Made by a program: the position numbers and the translations under genes. A stretch of DNA of 32,000 nt from Candidatus Heimdallarchaeota archaeon B3_Heim (GTDB taxonomy: Archaea; Asgardarchaeota; Heimdallarchaeia; Hodarchaeales; Hodarchaeaceae): the NCBI GenBank assembly GCA_003144275.1, contig NJBF01000003.1, forward strand, positions 90,001 to 122,000, in the 5' to 3' direction. Under the pieces are notes generated by a model that was not told where the DNA came from, searched no databases, and was given only the letters and a program-made list of their open reading frames with translations. Position 1 is the stretch's first letter. The number at the start of each line of letters is the position of its first letter. Of the stretch, positions 11,788-22,403 are shown one piece after another.

Positions 11788-12456
11788 TTATAATTCAATG
11801 ACTCGGTCTATTGGAATATTTCTTTTTTTTAGGAAGTTCAGCGCCCCACTGATATTACCAAGTTGTTCAAGGTAATGTGCATCCGACCCAACAGAAAATA
11901 TATTTTCTTCATCTAAATAATTGAACCATTGATCCAAATAATTTTGGTAACCAGTATTCAGCTCAATGATAAGGTTTTTTTCGCGTATCACACTCATGAC
12001 TTCATCAAATTTGGCATGTGTCACTCGTGAAAAGCGTGTATGGGCAAATCCAACATTCTTATTCGGGAAATCATGTGAAAATTTTCTAACCTCGGAAAAA
12101 ATCCTATCCCAAGTTGGTAAATTAAATACATACTCAAAGAGGATTAGATCCCATGAATAATACCCAAGTTTAGAAAAATCTGTAACTGAAGAAGTATCAA
12201 CTTCAATCCCCACAAATATCTGGATTTTTTTCGCAAATTTCTCTTTTAGGCTTTGAATTGTATCGAAGTATTGATTCATAGTTTCATTAGTTACAGCAGG
12301 TTTAAAATAAGAATAATGATCTGTAAAACAGATTTGCTCGATTTTTTTCTTAATTCCAAGGTTGATAAATTCTTCTGCAGAGGAAAACCCATCAGAGAAG
12401 TTAGTATGGATATGAAAGTCACGTTTGATCTCAAAAGAAGTCATTATATTCAACAA
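11788..12456 (-). CDS. PHP-domain phosphoesterase (HisK/YcdX-like)
   Basis: DFHIHT..SDG, TDH, GIEVD, AH and GSDAH motifs. Confidence 0.88.
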   Translation of the reverse strand: MLNIMTSFEIKRDFHIHTNFSDGFSSAEEFINLGIKKKIEQICFTDHYSYFKPAVTNETMNQYFDTIQSLKEKFAKKIQIFVGIEVDTSSVTDFSKLGYYSWDLILFEYVFNLPTWDRIFSEVRKFSHDFPNKNVGFAHTRFSRVTHAKFDEVMSVIREKNLIIELNTGYQNYLDQWFNYLDEENIFSVGSDAHYLEQLGNISGALNFLKKRNIPIDRVIEL

Positions 12457-12570
12457 ACGGAAAAACTACTGAGAAATAAATTTGTGGGTAAAGATAATTT
12501 TTTATGTTAAAAAAAAAGCTGATTTATCAGAGATAGAAGATAGAAGGTGGAGTAAATCGCGAAATTAGCC

Positions 12571-13317
12571 GTGCTTATTGACCCAAATAAAGGTCGCGCA
12601 ACAGAACGGATGTATAAAGCTCTAACTGAAATACTTATGGAGCATGAAGATCCTTCCCAGCTTCCACTTGAAATTTGGGTGGGAGATTCGCACGAAATCA
12701 TGAGAGGAGTGCACAAATACCTTCGCCGTCTCAAAAAGCTTGATTTAGTTCTTCCACCAGTAGTGATCTTTCCAGGGCACCCGCTCCAAATATCTTCTTT
12801 GTCTGATTACATTATGATGCCTACATTACTAAATTGTTATCGTTTTCGGATCAAAGTTGTACTCAAACTTGGTAAGAAATACCATTGGTTGTTTAAATGG
12901 ACCAGACGTCTGATTTTTGGGCAATTTCCGAAGGATCGGAAATATGGGTACCTAGTCTTAAGTCCTCAATCCACCGTTGGCAGAAAACTCCATGCAAAAG
13001 CACTAAAGGATGATGAAGCATATGACGAGTTAACACAAAAATGGCGTCCTTACTGGGAAATGTGCTATATAGAAGCAGGTTCAGGAAATTTCTCTGCTTC
13101 AATTGCCAATAGATTAGATCTTGTTAAGCGTGCATCGTTCTTCGCACATGGAAAACAAGCTAAGTTAATTACTGGAGGGGGAATTAGAACAAAAGAGCAA
13201 GTTGAAGGTTTAGTAAAAGCAGGCTCAGATTTGATAGTTGTTTCCTCAGTATTGGAAAAAGCTGACCATCCCAAAGAACTGATGAAACAATTTTTACAGG
13301 CTGTAAAACACCAGTAA
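12571..13317 (+). CDS. Geranylgeranylglyceryl-phosphate synthase (GGGPS) family, group II-like, divergent; 5' end irregular
   Basis: LIDP, IFPG, GYL, YIEAGSG and GGGIR motifs. An in-frame TAA at 12553-12555 limits the ORF; see findings. Confidence 0.8.
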   Translation: MLIDPNKGRATERMYKALTEILMEHEDPSQLPLEIWVGDSHEIMRGVHKYLRRLKKLDLVLPPVVIFPGHPLQISSLSDYIMMPTLLNCYRFRIKVVLKLGKKYHWLFKWTRRLIFGQFPKDRKYGYLVLSPQSTVGRKLHAKALKDDEAYDELTQKWRPYWEMCYIEAGSGNFSASIANRLDLVKRASFFAHGKQAKLITGGGIRTKEQVEGLVKAGSDLIVVSSVLEKADHPKELMKQFLQAVKHQ

Positions 13318-13328
13318 TTGTAGTTCTA

Positions 13329-13862
13329 TCATTCCAGACTTTTGCCATACTCGAATAGGTTTCCAGCATTATAGATATCGAGTTGTACCTTTGATAATGG
13401 TGTAACTTGCTTTGATTGAACATCTTCCTTTTCAGATGTAATTTCCCCTGTTGTTAGGTCAATAGTCATTTGATCACCAGAATTTAATGTAGTTGTCATA
13501 ATATCAGGGGCCAAAATTAGTGGTATTCCAGAATTGATTGCGTTTCGTTTATAAATAGCTCCAAACGATTCGCCAATAATTACGATTACTCCTAAAGCTT
13601 TGAAACAGTCAACAGCTTGCTGTCGTGAAGATCCTGCCCCAAAATTTTTCCCAACAATTAAAATAGTGTTTGCTGTTACTATTGATGGAAACTCCTCCCA
13701 CCCTGGGAGGTTGCCAAATGTATGTTGACCCATTTCATTAATATCGGTAATATGGAGGTGTTTGTTATGGAAAATCATGTCCGTATCGATATCATCGATA
13801 CCTTTACCTTGTGTATCCTTGATTACAATTGCTTTACCACTTAGATTAGTAGGTTTTTTCAT
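13329..13862 (-). CDS. LeuD-like aconitase-family small subunit (non-canonical pair)
   Basis: DIDTD, NFGAGSSRQQA and IYKRNAIN motifs; AGGAG ribosome-binding-like site upstream. Confidence 0.85.
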   Translation of the reverse strand: MKKPTNLSGKAIVIKDTQGKGIDDIDTDMIFHNKHLHITDINEMGQHTFGNLPGWEEFPSIVTANTILIVGKNFGAGSSRQQAVDCFKALGVIVIIGESFGAIYKRNAINSGIPLILAPDIMTTTLNSGDQMTIDLTTGEITSEKEDVQSKQVTPLSKVQLDIYNAGNLFEYGKSLE

Positions 13863-13883
13863 AATGCATAACTCCTAGCGTTT

Positions 13884-15137
13884 TCAAATTTCTGGAACAA
13901 TTATTTCTCCTGCAAGAGCACAGGCTGCAGCTGTTGCTGGAGAAGCTAGATAAGTATCTCCTTTGCCTTGTTTTCCTGCAAAGTTTCGATTCCCAGTCGT
14001 AATTTGCACTTCTCCTTCACCTGTCATTCCAATTTGTCCACTTGCACAGCTGGCGCACCCAGGATTACTTATAATAGCTCCAGATTGATAAAATAATTCA
14101 ATAAGACCATTCTTTAGCATTTGTCCATATACTTCTTGTGTTGCAGGGACAATCTTCATCATGACGTCATTATGAACTTTTCTACCTTTGAGGATTCGAG
14201 CAGCTACCGCAAAATCTTCATATCGACCATTTGTGCAAGAGGCAATGACAACGGAGTCCACTTTTATTCCTGTAATCTCTGCGACTGGTTTTACATTAGC
14301 TGGATTAGGTGGTAAAGCAATTCTAGGTTCTATCCCTCCAAAATCATATTGAATATCCTCTACATAGCTAGCATCAGCATCGGCTTTGTGAATAGGAAAA
14401 TCTTTTCCACTTCTTTTCTTGCAATAATCAATAATTCTTTCATCGGGTGTGATTAAACCAATAATTCCTCCCATTTCTGTAACTTGACTGGCCAGCGTAA
14501 TACGTCCTGCTAAGTCAAGGGCATCAACTGTAGTCCCATAGAATTCTACCGATTTGCCCAATGCTCCTTTTGAACCTAATTGTTCTAATACTCCTAAAGT
14601 AACATCTTTGGCAAAGGAATTTTTAGCCGGGATCCCATCAATGGTGACTCGCATAGTATAGGGCACTTCAAACCATGTTTTACCTGTTTTGAAGGTAAAA
14701 GCAATATCTTGATCGCCCATTCCCTGTCCAAAGGCGCCTATGGCGCCAAGAATATTCAAATGAGAATCAGTACCAACAACAGTACTGTTTGGAGTTGCTA
14801 CTCCTTTTTCTATCATAACGTGAGATCCTATTCCTGCGTTCACATCATACAGGTTTTCCCGTGGTAAGTTATTCCGGGCAAATACTCTAGCGATTTGTTG
14901 ATTTTCAGCATAACCTAGATTATTTGCAGGAACTACACAATCAAATGTGAAAAAGGTTTTCTTGGGATCGGCAACATGTGATTCACCTGGATAATTAGTT
15001 TCAAGATTTTTGACTACATTGGCGCCACCGAAATCACGAGCGGATCGCACATCGATATCTAACCAAACGATCTTTTCTGGAGCAACTTCTTCCGATGTAT
15101 GGTCGGCAATTATTTTTTCAATTATTGGTTTACCCAT
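13884..15137 (-). CDS. LeuC-like aconitase-family large subunit with altered active-site motifs
   Basis: GTDSH, SCTNGR, NPGCASC and GNRNF are present (three cluster Cys). The start is more likely ATG 15137 (MGKPIIEKII) than 15155. Confidence 0.85.
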   Translation of the reverse strand: MGKPIIEKIIADHTSEEVAPEKIVWLDIDVRSARDFGGANVVKNLETNYPGESHVADPKKTFFTFDCVVPANNLGYAENQQIARVFARNNLPRENLYDVNAGIGSHVMIEKGVATPNSTVVGTDSHLNILGAIGAFGQGMGDQDIAFTFKTGKTWFEVPYTMRVTIDGIPAKNSFAKDVTLGVLEQLGSKGALGKSVEFYGTTVDALDLAGRITLASQVTEMGGIIGLITPDERIIDYCKKRSGKDFPIHKADADASYVEDIQYDFGGIEPRIALPPNPANVKPVAEITGIKVDSVVIASCTNGRYEDFAVAARILKGRKVHNDVMMKIVPATQEVYGQMLKNGLIELFYQSGAIISNPGCASCASGQIGMTGEGEVQITTGNRNFAGKQGKGDTYLASPATAAACALAGEIIVPEI

Positions 15138-15333
15138 TCTAATTTGACACCCCATAGATTATACTCTGATTTACAAAAAGAGTATCTGTGTCTTCATTTT
15201 AACTGAATTCACGGAAATTTTTTCCTCGAAAAAAACCTTCCTCCTTGATGATTACAAAACCAAGAAGGAGCGATAAGAATTGCTAAGAATCAACTAGATT
15301 TATTAGATTAGAACCGTTCATCGCTCTGTTCGC

Positions 15334-15591
15334 TTGGAGAAGGTTGGTGTTCTCTCTCGACAGTTTTTTCGGATGGTGAGGAAGATTGGCAGTAATATGA
15401 CGAATATACATGAAGCCTTACAAGAGTTTTCCGGGCAATCTGAAGAATTTAGTGCATCTAGTGAGCAGGTAGCTGCTGCAACTGAAGAGCAGACAGCATC
15501 TATGAATCAAATGACGTTTTCGGCACAGGCATTAACCCAACTTGCCGATAATCTTTCAAAAATGGTAGCAATTTTCAACCTAAATACTTAA
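15334..15591 (+). pseudogene. Isolated C-terminal helix of a methyl-accepting chemotaxis protein (remnant or mini-protein)
   Basis: Heptad pattern SEEFSASSEQVAAATEEQTASMNQM...AQALTQLADNLSKMVAIF typical of MCP C-termini. No hairpin-tip, HAMP or sensor region upstream. Confidence 0.6.
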
Positions 15592-15629
15592 ACCTCCACC
15601 CTTTTCTTATCTTTTTTTAAGGTAAGGAT

Positions 15630-16895
15630 ATGGTAGGTCAAACTTTAATCCAAAAAATTTTAGCAAAAGCTTCAGGTAAAGAGACTGAAGGAGTTGTCGA
15701 AAATGAAATTGTTTTTGTCTCACCTCACAGGATATTATCTCATGATAACTCAGCAGCTATTTCTAAAACGTTTTATAAGATGGTGGGGCCAAATGGGAAA
15801 ATTTGGGGTCCTGAAAAAATCTTTATTGCATTAGATCATGCTGTTCCCCCGCCTGACGCAGTAAAAGCGGGAAACCATACAGTCATCAGGAAGTTTGTTA
15901 AAGATCAAGGTATTAAATATTTCTACGAGGGTGGTACGGGCATTTGTCATGAAGTCTTGCCTGCTAAAGGACACGTTCCTCCTAATGTTGTAATCCTCGG
16001 CAGTGATAGCCACACTACCACTCATGGTGCGTTTGGTGCAGCAGGTATTCCTATTGGAAGAACTGAAACCGCTTCTGTATGGGCTATTGGGGAAACATGG
16101 TTGAAAGTACCAGAATCTATCAAGATCATTCTTGATGGTTCATTACCAAAAGGTGTTTATGCGAAAGATGTCATCTTAGAAATTATACGACAAATAACAG
16201 CTGCAGGAGCAACGTATAATTCCATTGAATTTTATGGTTCCTCTGTAAAGAAGTTATCCATGAGTGAACGGATGACATTAAGCAATCTGACTGCAGAAAT
16301 GGGTGCCAAAGCAGGCATTTTTCCAGTGGATGATGTAACTGATGAATGGAACAAACAATTTGGGTTTCAATATGATCGAATAACTGCAGATGAAGATGCG
16401 AAGTATATCAAAACTCTGGAATTGGAGGTGTCTAACTTAACCCCTCGTATAGCCAAACCTCATAAAGTGGATAATGTAGTTCCCATAGAAGAATTAGGAA
16501 AAACCACTATAGATGTGGCATTAATTGGAACTTGTACAAATGGGCGGTTAGATGATCTTGAAATTGCAGCCAATATCTTGAAAGATAAAACCATTCATCC
16601 CAATATTCGATTATTAGTATATCCAGCTTCTCAAGAGATTCTTCTCCAAGCAACACGGGAAGGGATACTTGAGATTCTTGTAGCTGCTGGAGGCCAAATT
16701 GGAGTTCCTGCCTGTGGTCCTTGTTTAGGAGCATATGGTGGATGTATTGCATCAGGAGAAAAAGCTATTTCCTCGGCGAACAGAAATTTCAAAGGTCGTA
16801 TGGGTAGTAAAGAAGATACGGGAATTTATTTAGCTAGTCCAGCAACAGTGGCGAAATCAGCCCTTGCAGGGTACATAACTGCAGAGGAGTCATAA
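15630..16895 (+). CDS. LeuC/HacA-like large subunit, probable homoaconitase
   Basis: SHDN, LDH, GICHE, GSDSH, GTCTNGR, CGPC and ANRNFKGRMG motifs; all canonical aconitase-family residues present. Confidence 0.85.
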   Translation: MVGQTLIQKILAKASGKETEGVVENEIVFVSPHRILSHDNSAAISKTFYKMVGPNGKIWGPEKIFIALDHAVPPPDAVKAGNHTVIRKFVKDQGIKYFYEGGTGICHEVLPAKGHVPPNVVILGSDSHTTTHGAFGAAGIPIGRTETASVWAIGETWLKVPESIKIILDGSLPKGVYAKDVILEIIRQITAAGATYNSIEFYGSSVKKLSMSERMTLSNLTAEMGAKAGIFPVDDVTDEWNKQFGFQYDRITADEDAKYIKTLELEVSNLTPRIAKPHKVDNVVPIEELGKTTIDVALIGTCTNGRLDDLEIAANILKDKTIHPNIRLLVYPASQEILLQATREGILEILVAAGGQIGVPACGPCLGAYGGCIASGEKAISSANRNFKGRMGSKEDTGIYLASPATVAKSALAGYITAEES

Positions 16896-16897
16896 AA

Positions 16898-17425
16898 ATG
16901 CGTTTCAAGAGTCAAAAAATATGGATTTTTCCAGAAGATGATATTAACACGGATGTAATATTCCCAGGACGGTATACGTATGAGCCGCTAACACCTGATG
17001 AAATGGCTCGTCACGCCCTAGAAGATTATGATTCTAAATTCATTGAAGAAGTGGAAGAGGGAGATATCATCGTGGCAGGCAATAATTTTGGAGCTGGTTC
17101 AAGTCGAGAGCAAGCAGTTACCTGTTTACAAGCTGCTGGAATTAGTTGTATTATTGCAAAATCGTTTGCACGTATATATTTTCGAAATGCTATCAACCAG
17201 GCGCTTCCCCTCGTTATTTCGCCGGAATGTTCAGACTTTATAACAAAGAATAAGAAAAATCTATTATCCTCTAAAGAAAAAATTGATGTAGATTTTGATA
17301 ATGGCCTCCTTAAGATTAAAGATAAAGTGTTTTCATTCCCCAAACTTGATGATCAGGCACTTCAAATCTTTAAGGCCGGAGGTTTAGTTGAATATACTAA
17401 AACTAGGTTAAAGAAAAGTACGTGA
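16898..17425 (+). CDS. LeuD/HacB-like small subunit, probable homoaconitase
   Basis: DINTDVIFPGRYTY, NFGAGSSREQA and IYFRNAIN motifs; 2 nt after the large-subunit stop, with GAGGAG upstream. Confidence 0.85.
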   Translation: MRFKSQKIWIFPEDDINTDVIFPGRYTYEPLTPDEMARHALEDYDSKFIEEVEEGDIIVAGNNFGAGSSREQAVTCLQAAGISCIIAKSFARIYFRNAINQALPLVISPECSDFITKNKKNLLSSKEKIDVDFDNGLLKIKDKVFSFPKLDDQALQIFKAGGLVEYTKTRLKKST

Positions 17426-21498: not shown

Positions 21499-22074
21499 TT
21501 ATCCTTTTTTCTTCTGCTGTGGAGAGGGAACCAGAATAAGGTCATATTCACGTGAACCTATTCCTTGAGAATAAGCAGCAGCTAATTGTGTTTCTGCAAT
21601 AATGGGTCGAGATACAGGATCAACAAATCGGCTATATAAACCCAATTTTTGATTTTCAGCTTCCAATGCTCGTTCATTCGGTTCAATTCGTCCACTTGGA
21701 GAATTCATTCCAGTTTCCGCAGGTGACATGGGTAGTCCCCGAGCTTTAGTGACAAGATCCACACTTGCTTGATCTATAGCAATTGGATCTTCAGAATACA
21801 AGATGCCCTGGTCTGGAACGAGAAGATGTCCACCTGCAGACATACAATCACAATGGCTTGTGATATCAATTGCGATGTTGAAATATCTTAATCTCTCCTT
21901 TCCAGTCCCTTTTACTACTCCTCCAGCATTATCCATCATTCTTTCTACTTGTTCCACACTGGGAACCCGGCGTCTTAATGCAAAAACTCGTTCTTTTTCC
22001 ATATCCTTTCCGTGATGACATTTATCAAAACACATGATCATTTTTGTCCGACAAAGCGAGATTACTCGTATTCG
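21499..22074 (-). pseudogene. 5'-truncated DUF362 (4Fe-4S) protein, C-terminal half only
   Basis: ERM...GVVK, NIAIDITSHCDC and VPDQGILYSEDPIAIDQASVDLV match the DUF362 C-terminal region. A residual C..CFDKC ferredoxin motif remains. In-frame TAG at 22077-22075, and no N-terminal DUF362 domain upstream. Confidence 0.7.
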
Positions 22075-22165
22075 CTAACCTCTCCCTCTCTCTTACATTC
22101 ATAAAAAGCCTCCCTCCATAACCTCTTCCAAGCGAGGTGATGAAAAGAAAAATTCCTAACTTCTT

Positions 22166-22380
22166 GGGTCTTATTCACTTGTAACTACGTGAGACGAGTT
22201 ACCCGTCAAAGGCAAGAGAAGAATGACCCTTTAGACGTGAGAGGTATTAGCGCTGGGGATATCAGCAGTAAGGATGCTTCAAGTAGTCCCAATGAATAGT
22301 AACCCTTTTAGTGGTGCTAATCTGCTGGATAGCGGATGTGTGACTCATCCTGTCCAGAACTCTTTTCAAGAGTTGTCTGA
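22166..22380 (+). ncRNA. Candidate structured non-coding RNA, family unassigned (partial omega-RNA/HEARO resemblance)
   Basis: At least seven abutting helices read by eye. Five G-U pairs favour the + strand. About 45% GC by hand count (97/215) in otherwise AT-rich DNA. No ORF of 60 aa or more. Confidence 0.6.
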
Positions 22381-22403
22381 CAAATCTAGTCATGAACCAA
22401 AGC

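Follow-up and report, generated by a model that had tools for sequence, protein, structure and literature searches.

Among described enzymes, the closest solved relatives of the protein pair considered here are LeuCD (isopropylmalate/citramalate isomerase; 4KP1/4NQY, 3VBA) and HacAB (4KP2, 2PKP) of Methanocaldococcus jannaschii. In aconitase, His101 is the general acid that protonates the leaving hydroxyl. In the methylcitrate cycle, dehydration of the tertiary alcohol and hydration of the ene-acid are split between AcnD/PrpF and AcnB. The window analysed here, a stretch of 32,000 nucleotides from Candidatus Heimdallarchaeota archaeon B3_Heim (contig NJBF01000003.1, positions 90,001 to 122,000), contains two aconitase-family large/small subunit pairs placed head to head, at 13329-15137 (-) and 15630-17425 (+). 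The second pair is canonical. The first has no histidine at the His101 position and is referred to below as the His-less pair. It is the signature part of a widespread, undescribed module that stands beside citrate-cleaving enzymes in anaerobic bacteria and archaea; this gene context is the main result. A full-text literature search found no description of the His-less clade or of the module.

Large-subunit matches to the M. jannaschii enzymes gave E values of 1e-90 and 9e-80, and the small subunit gave 3e-22. Both systems have a two-subunit architecture, three cluster cysteines, Asp-Ser-His (DSH), NRNF and the GSSR base motif. The His-less pair differs in that the histidine of D-H is gone, H-D reads R-D, G-x-C-H reads G-I-G-S-H and the arginine of NRNFxGR is lysine. 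The small-subunit loop is F-H-N-x-x-L here, against P-A-R-Y-L-V or P-G-P-Y-L-R in the M. jannaschii enzymes, and the His-less pair has no leuA/leuB or aks context.

Active site and conservation of the His-less pair

Motif coordinates (Table 1) were re-translated, and replacements were read from a pairwise alignment with the divergently transcribed canonical pair (34% identity between large subunits, 38% between small subunits). The large-subunit start follows the homologues, which begin at Met7; an in-frame upstream ATG lies at 15155. All replacements listed in the preliminary description, which had been made from the sequence alone, were present at their coordinates: LSHDNS reads SARDFG, LDHAVP reads FDCVVP, GICHE reads GIGSH, GSSRE reads GSSRQ and FPGRYTY reads FHNKHLH. 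Two further active-site changes were found: NRNFxGR reads NRNFAGK, with Lys for aconitase Arg452, and SNLTAE reads ASQVTE, with Ser for Asn258. DSH, Cys307, Cys367, Cys370 and NRNF are intact. As judged from its residues, the pair retains all that an aconitase-type cluster with an open iron, and proton abstraction by the small-subunit serine, require.

Conservation was counted in 203 distinct large-subunit orthologues and 71 small subunits. Arg40, Asp41, Phe42, Asp72, Gly110, His112, Asp-Ser-His130-132 and Asn134 were invariant, as were Glu227, the three cluster cysteines, Asn389-Arg390 and Lys395. Ser223 and Gln396 were each present in 202 of the 203, and position 111 was Ser or Thr. DSH, the cluster cysteines and the Asn-Arg of NRNF, reported earlier as intact in this one sequence, are invariant throughout the set. 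Most of the substitutions were not sporadic among homologues and behave as family traits. GIG[S/T]H, one of the motifs singled out earlier for a test of invariance, was invariant or nearly so; another, DC, was not, with Cys at only 72%. In the small subunits, DTD, His32, Asn33, Leu36 and GSSRQ were invariant; for the loop HNKHLH, proposed to set specificity, this covers His32, Asn33 and Leu36 and leaves the other loop residues variable.

The position equivalent to His101 was Cys in 146 orthologues, Leu in 51 (25%) and Thr in 6 (3%), and was never His. As far as these alignments go, the conserved trait is the absence of His, not the presence of Cys. A fourth cysteine near the cluster, or another special role for Cys, had been considered possible; because Cys is not conserved there, a fourth cysteine ligand or a cysteine acid is unlikely. 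Cys73 was accordingly rejected as fourth ligand or new acid, the position being Leu, Thr or Tyr in many homologues. For the displaced histidine of GIGSH, HMMER placed His112 on aconitase His147 and on the M. jannaschii HacA histidine through a one-residue insertion, and an ungapped alignment to M. jannaschii LeuC placed Ser111, not His112, at the His147 position. The change from GICHE is real, but loss of the His147 equivalent need not follow from it, and the residue may be retained on a bulge.

Clade-specific positions were defined as those with one residue in at least 95% of 80 orthologues and the same residue in no more than 5% of 147 canonical relatives. There were 18, including Arg40, Asp41 and Phe42 of ARDF, and by this comparison the motif differences are far beyond chance. 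Lys395, invariant in the clade, is replaced by Arg in 96-100% of canonical relatives. The ratio of nonsynonymous to synonymous substitution (dN/dS, Nei-Gojobori) for the large subunit was 0.117 and 0.027 against relatives at 95% and 89% identity, similar to 0.125 for the canonical neighbour, so the His-less gene is maintained and not decaying. The earlier proposal of a maintained enzyme with an altered active site is therefore upheld by the 203 + 71 orthologues, by dN/dS of 0.03-0.12 and by a monophyletic clade. These enzymes depart from the family pattern at four or five positions, yet are among the family's most conserved members.

A maximum-likelihood tree separated 34 His-less from 73 canonical sequences by a branch with an SH-aLRT (Shimodaira-Hasegawa-like approximate likelihood ratio test) support of 100, and the window's canonical neighbour fell within a clade on the canonical side. 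In this tree the His-less sequences form a deep monophyletic clade, which is assigned to the archaeal-type LeuCD/HacAB branch of the superfamily. An exhaustive search of representatives with the signature R-D / D-[CLTY] / G-I-G-x-H / G-K returned a handful of 50%-identity clusters only, some of them fused large and small forms of 610-637 residues. A large sister subfamily reads RDFG / FDYQAP / GIGQH / GKL, with Tyr at the His101 position in 119 of 120 sequences; its small subunit keeps the loop histidine but has canonical GSSRE, and it fills the same slot in the same operon. Traits common to the whole superclade are loss of His101, Arg40, His112, Lys395 and the small-subunit loop histidine.

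The enzyme has the PF00330 + PF00694 architecture, three cysteine ligands and the GSSR Ser/Arg of the superfamily; the general-acid histidine is absent (Asp72 is kept) and Arg452 is replaced by invariant Lys395. Among NCBIfam models, scores exceeded the cut-offs of the subfamily-level models NF001614 and TIGR01343 and lay under every equivalog cut-off. Values were 344.5 against 610.65 and 90.4 against 245.85 for isopropylmalate isomerase (IPMI; TIGR02083 / TIGR02084), 341.2 against 550 and 92.6 against 230 for HacAB (NF040615 / NF040604; the Y-L-R-T loop is absent, F-H-N-K-H-L-H standing in its place), and 225.9 against 612 and 215.3 against 719 for aconitate hydratase (NF005558, TIGR01342). 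A standing as standard IPMI was thus not borne out by profile. Membership of the superfamily is clear from these models, and in the tests run the pair fell outside IPMI, homoaconitase (HACN) and aconitase proper.

Distribution, gene neighbourhood and genome context

Among 5.8 billion proteins searched, well over 100 orthologues turned up at about 60-95% identity; they belong to Asgard archaea, Anaerolineae, KSB1, Riflebacteria and Planctomycetota. Near-identical proteins bear source names that point to a Hodarchaeales-type Heimdall (Asgard) genome for the window. A scan with one genome per species found at least 572 carrier species, with further carriers in Bathyarchaeia, Thermoplasmatota, Bipolaricaulota, Aminicenantes, Cloacimonadota, Eubacteriales and others. 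Archaeal and bacterial members were 55-63% identical.

In bacteria, the His-less genes stand in operons of two orders, both of which recur in loci of unrelated phyla. One runs ligase beta and alpha subunits, citryl-CoA lyase, HD protein, canonical pair, Iso_dh-family dehydrogenase, His-less pair; the other runs ligase, lyase, HD protein, His-less pair, canonical pair, dehydrogenase. The ligase is succinyl-CoA-synthetase-like, with an ATP-citrate-lyase-type extension on the beta subunit. The lyase (258 residues) matched Hydrogenobacter citryl-CoA lyase (CCL; 6HXP) at E=3e-59 and keeps the catalytic His, Asp and Arg motifs of citrate synthase. In one Heimdall family (f2) the order is HD protein, dehydrogenase, His-less pair, fused canonical enzyme, and AclB-like and AclA-like subunits of ATP-citrate lyase (ACL). 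Archaeal modules without a ligase nearby also occur. At least one partner gene was found at 49 of 80 loci, and the dehydrogenase gene ended no more than 400 bp from the His-less gene at 23 of them. The canonical small subunit of the bacterial operons has the same FPG[KR]YTY loop as the window's neighbour, and the twin pairs of the window are therefore a piece of the module.

The module dehydrogenase (for example L004 8835-9956) has an invariant S-P-I-V-R-L-R substrate helix, with Ile for Asn115 of isocitrate dehydrogenase (ICDH) and an Arg one position off Arg85 of the Thermus homoisocitrate dehydrogenase. It scored under all equivalog cut-offs, best with the AksF2/homoisocitrate dehydrogenase models. 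The HD protein (about 180 residues) is often directly beside the His-less genes, and its AlphaFold model (pLDDT 93) contains a confident HD domain. A PDB profile search, an atlas search and Foldseek returned only generic HD phosphohydrolase relatives for it, the best being YhaM (TM 0.70).

Variant neighbourhoods were also recorded. In Krumholzibacteriota-like loci a fused His-less enzyme stands beside genes for 2-oxoacid:ferredoxin oxidoreductase and malic enzyme; at L058, L079 and L091 it has 609-640 residues and the order is oxidoreductase, malic enzyme, dehydrogenase, fused His-less enzyme, canonical pair. In a protein from a European Nucleotide Archive metagenome (P0301, 532 residues), a LeuD-type (PF00694) small subunit is naturally fused to an Iso_dh domain; the small-subunit loop is FPGRYLE, not GKYTY, and the fusion ties the hydro-lyase class to the dehydrogenase. 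In a Heimdall archaeon (L015, 1237-1527) and on an unrelated metagenome contig (L101, 14241-15376), the module dehydrogenase gene is followed by one for a ThiS-like sulfur carrier, with a TtuA-like gene next after it on the contig; this neighbour is sporadic among the 80 loci. TsaB, GNAT and TruA were rejected as module parts, since their recurrence looks like lineage-specific housekeeping synteny.

Genome-wide co-occurrence was scored in 28 carrier genomes. All 28 encoded an orthologue of the canonical small subunit (at least 51% identity), 27 a single-copy module HD protein, and 26 an intact module dehydrogenase (at least 57% identity), with a split copy in one more. A LeuA-family synthase was present in only 12, and the leu operons, where present, had their own LeuCD. 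Membership of the leucine pathway was rejected, with 16 of the 28 lacking the LeuA family and the HMGL-like locus of the window's own genome interrupted; a link to the LysW/LysX aminoadipate pathway was rejected because LysX was present in only 6. Among 151 Asgard genomes the His-less gene was patchy (9 carriers), and canonical orthologues at 61% identity or more were found in only 7, all of them His-less carriers. Five Heimdall f2 genomes (88-95% complete) had no aconitase-family or Iso_dh gene outside the module. They give the strongest indication that citrate can be taken to 2-oxoglutarate by the module, the sole candidate for these steps in that family. As the sole tricarboxylic acid (TCA) branch in all carriers the module was ruled out for most bacteria; for Heimdall f2 this role is possible.

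The window's own genome encodes an AcnA-type aconitase and one unrelated Iso_dh protein. A search of it found no module dehydrogenase, HD protein or ligase, and its only HMGL-like locus is short and stop-interrupted. The closest relative likewise lacks the module dehydrogenase and HD protein. Three more distant congeners have an adjacent HD-dehydrogenase gene pair, about 6 kb past the canonical pair in the sole congener assembly with both on one contig. At window 21499-22388, a 180-residue C-terminal DUF362 fragment lies beside a miniature inverted-repeat transposable element (MITE); in the Heimdall relative L015, a DUF362-ferredoxin gene near the canonical pair is intact (425 residues). Fragment and MITE suggest the rearrangement that removed the HD-dehydrogenase genes, and because they lie where the relative has an intact gene the loss in this lineage is probably real, both pairs having remained constrained after it. 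Sequencing runs listed for this stretch are DNA runs from marine sediment and cold seeps, with no RNA data set among them.

Elsewhere in the genome, a third LeuC-like gene (C19:70967-72316; L099 6983-8319) has canonical motifs and an in-frame TAA at codon 311, just ahead of the first cluster cysteine; it is a pseudogene unless the stop is an assembly error. About 1.6 kb separate a CitF-type citrate CoA-transferase gene from one for a 253-residue citryl-CoA-lyase-like protein (C11:57755-61775; L098 4755-8775), and the two could form an ATP-independent citrate lyase of unusual parts.

Within the window, the His-less pair is adjoined by PcrB (geranylgeranylglyceryl-phosphate synthase) and PHP-domain genes (11788-13317; 11858-13452 in L015). 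These neighbours are syntenic with one complete Heimdall genome and missing from the bacterial loci, and were therefore taken as lineage synteny outside the module. The divergent intergenic region contains an 85-residue open reading frame (15334-15591, +), probably a fragment of a gene, whose product is similar to the C-terminal signalling portion of methyl-accepting chemotaxis proteins. The canonical partner pair is one of a large family whose small subunits share the loop NTD(V/Q)IFPG(K/R)YTY and of which many members are fused (625-717 residues); it too scored under all IPMI and HACN equivalog cut-offs.

Table 1. Coordinates of the two gene pairs and of the active-site features of the His-less pair within the window.
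Feature	Position	Strand	Remarks
His-less hydro-lyase, large subunit	13884..15137	-	417 aa from Met7; PF00330 E=1.3e-76
His-less pair, small (swivel-domain) subunit	13329..13862	-	PF00694 2.1e-13; TIGR02087
Canonical partner pair, large subunit	15630..16895	+	Every catalytic residue canonical; orthologous to canonical pair of bacterial operons
Canonical partner pair, small subunit	16898..17425	+	Loop FPG[KR]YTY
Divergent intergenic region common to both pairs	15138..15629	.	Head-to-head order also in relatives L015 and L019 and in genomes G058 and G119
ARDF, Ala39-Phe42	15030..15041	-	Arg40 in place of His of canonical S-H-D-N (aconitase Gln72 region)
Cys73 codon	14937..14939	-	Aconitase His101 position; ungapped alignment with M. 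jannaschii IPMI FDHQVPA
GIGSH, Gly108-His112	14820..14834	-	His one residue displaced relative to canonical GxCH(Q/E)
Asp130-Ser131-His132	14760..14768	-	Aconitase Asp165-Ser166-His167; retained, invariant
SQVTE	14475..14489	-	Ser223 for aconitase Asn258; Glu227 = Glu262 retained
Cys307, first [4Fe-4S] ligand	14235..14237	-	Aligned to aconitase Cys358; invariant
Cys367-x-x-Cys370, second and third cluster ligands	14046..14057	-	Aconitase Cys421/Cys424; invariant
NRNFAGKQ	13968..13991	-	Asn389-Arg390 retained; Lys395-Gln396 for canonical Arg-Met (aconitase Arg452)
Small-subunit substrate loop HNKHLH, His32-His37	13752..13769	-	Canonical enzymes have Pro at the His32 position
Small-subunit GSSRQ	13620..13634	-	Catalytic Ser (aconitase Ser642) and Arg644 retained; Glu to Gln

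Candidate reactions

From the conservation, the clade, the module and the co-occurrence we infer a substrate, a half-reaction and a candidate acid residue. Enzymes of the His-less clade would be functional [4Fe-4S] hydro-lyases dedicated to one half-reaction on a citrate-type tricarboxylate, and the remaining half would fall to the canonical pair; this reading is given close to an even chance. A citrate-type tricarboxylate is pointed to by the neighbouring genes, for citryl-CoA synthetase (CCS)/CCL or ACL. The module would interconvert such an acid and a 2-oxoacid, with isomerisation divided between two enzymes. The His-less enzyme would take the tertiary-alcohol half (citrate-like acid to ene-acid) and the canonical pair the secondary-alcohol half that feeds the dehydrogenase. 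On the citrate side, a citryl-CoA synthetase-like enzyme and citryl-CoA lyase in bacteria, or ATP-citrate lyase in some Heimdall archaea, would act in the cleaving or the forming direction.

At the active site, the ligands of the predicted Lewis-acid cluster are kept, as are the Asp-Ser-His triad, Glu262, Asn446/Arg447 and, on the small subunit, the Ser-alkoxide base with its Arg. The substrate cage appears remodelled: Arg37/Arg40 and the loop His-Asn are new, the histidine of the His147 region is displaced, Asn258 is Ser and Arg452 is Lys-Gln. Protonation of the leaving hydroxyl would have moved to another residue, for which small-subunit His32, His112 and Lys395 are candidates. A shift of the acid function would have a precedent in AcnX, and a split into half-reactions one in aconitase and homoaconitase. 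More broadly and more tentatively, the module may be an undescribed, horizontally mobile variant of the segment from citrate to 2-oxoglutarate, or of a close homologue, in hundreds of anaerobic lineages, with the aconitase reaction split and the acid moved off His101, possibly onto the small-subunit loop histidine; this is given a chance of about one in three.

Several points weigh against a split reaction on citrate. The substrate is indicated by gene neighbours only, and in the module dehydrogenase (S-P-I-V-R-L-R) the isocitrate determinant of the Asn115 type is missing. The model does not account for the HD protein. Aconitase uses His101 in both half-reactions, so its loss alone gives no indication of which half the His-less enzyme would catalyse. 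In the window's own genome and in the nearest relative, dehydrogenase and HD protein are absent but both pairs are under constraint; the pairs can thus persist without these partners. In most bacterial carriers, enzymes of the ordinary kind are present as well: a fused aconitase, AcnA or AcnB beside an ICDH, together with citrate synthase or ACL. The module then adds a third pathway of its type to such carriers, and because the ordinary enzymes are already present its substrate may be a homologue of citrate rather than citrate.

The ordinary aconitase and ICDH of most carriers also favour a scheme in which both pairs are complete isomerases, each for its own chain length or its own round of a 2-oxoacid elongation, such as one on citrate and the other on homocitrate; the second substrate would be that of the His-less pair. 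Methanogen Aks enzymes work in iterative rounds and provide a parallel, and the module dehydrogenase scores best, though under cut-offs, with the AksF2/homoisocitrate dehydrogenase models. Such a scheme is nevertheless considered unlikely: the module has one dehydrogenase and one condensing or cleaving system only, LysX is rare among the carriers (6 of 28), and a complete isomerase would not be expected to lose its general-acid histidine. That loss would be accommodated if the His-less enzyme acted on a CoA thioester or phosphorylated derivative made by the ligase, by dehydration or elimination without a general acid, with the HD protein working on the same intermediates. The clade has gained invariant Arg37 and Arg40 and lost a carboxylate-binding Arg, and the single-copy HD protein, of phosphohydrolase fold and with a confidently modelled HD domain, is near-obligate (27 of 28 carriers) and often beside the His-less genes. 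However, we know of no aconitase-family enzyme with a thioester or phosphoester substrate, the ligase can be missing near archaeal modules, and fold searches with the HD protein yield generic relatives only, so that chemistry of this kind is improbable, by a similar judgement to that on elongation or a shade more severe.

The remaining explanations assign no new reaction to the pair. An ordinary IPMI or HACN isoenzyme whose odd residues reflect neutral drift would agree with the source annotation (3-isopropylmalate dehydratase) and with the scores for NF001614 and TIGR01343. It is very unlikely given the scores under all equivalog cut-offs (344 vs 610, 341 vs 550), the 16 of 28 carriers without a LeuA-family synthase, the separate LeuCD of leu operons, and differences that are invariant and located at catalytic positions. 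Loss of the general acid and strict co-occurrence with a catalytically complete paralogue would also fit a non-catalytic Fe-S protein that works as sensor or regulator, or as scaffold subunit of the canonical pair; such a protein would have no need of the invariant Ser base with its Arg, Asp-Ser-His and Asn-Arg, nor of a dedicated small subunit, which in some members is fused to the large one, and the idea has even less to commend it. A duplicate decaying to a pseudo-enzyme in its own genome is barely credible and largely refuted by conservation. The loss of the dehydrogenase and HD genes there and in the nearest relative, and the in-frame stop in the third LeuC-like gene, would fit decay, but the reading frames of the pair are intact, all family-invariant residues are present, and dN/dS is 0.12 against the relative with the same loss.

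There is a realistic chance that the clade marks an undescribed pathway. Its members are annotated everywhere as 3-isopropylmalate dehydratase, and reconstructions of leucine, lysine and TCA metabolism are therefore silently distorted in Asgard archaea, Bathyarchaeia, Anaerolineae, Aminicenantes, Cloacimonadota and other sediment lineages. Once defined, the reaction would explain how catalysis by an Fe-S hydro-lyase proceeds when the canonical acid is missing, and it could uncover a new branch of central carbon metabolism in lineages near the eukaryotic ancestor.

Comparison with known systems

A non-homologous acid has been described in AcnX, which keeps the Ser base and the Fe-S Lewis acid while Lys530 takes the role of His101 (PMC8184944). 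AcnX is a dehydratase of the same superfamily as the His-less enzyme, in which another residue would likewise fill that role. Its identity to other members is below 10% and its cluster and substrate sites differ, whereas the His-less clade is a clear relative of LeuC/HacA at 34-47% identity.

Division of one isomerisation over two family enzymes is known for aconitase and homoaconitase (Lys4/HACN) in the aminoadipate pathway of fungi and Thermus (PMC3556520). The module resembles such two-enzyme isomerisations in always pairing the His-less variant with a canonical enzyme. In the fungal/Thermus and AcnD/AcnB systems both enzymes keep the full catalytic set, whereas here one partner is His-less; the His-less enzyme is co-encoded in one operon with its partner, and the split itself is proposed by analogy. 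The same enzyme families are brought together in one operon by reductive and oxidative TCA clusters (ACL or CCS/CCL, aconitase and isocitrate dehydrogenase). Unlike these clusters, the module has two LeuCD-type hydro-lyases in place of one aconitase, an additional HD protein and a divergent dehydrogenase.

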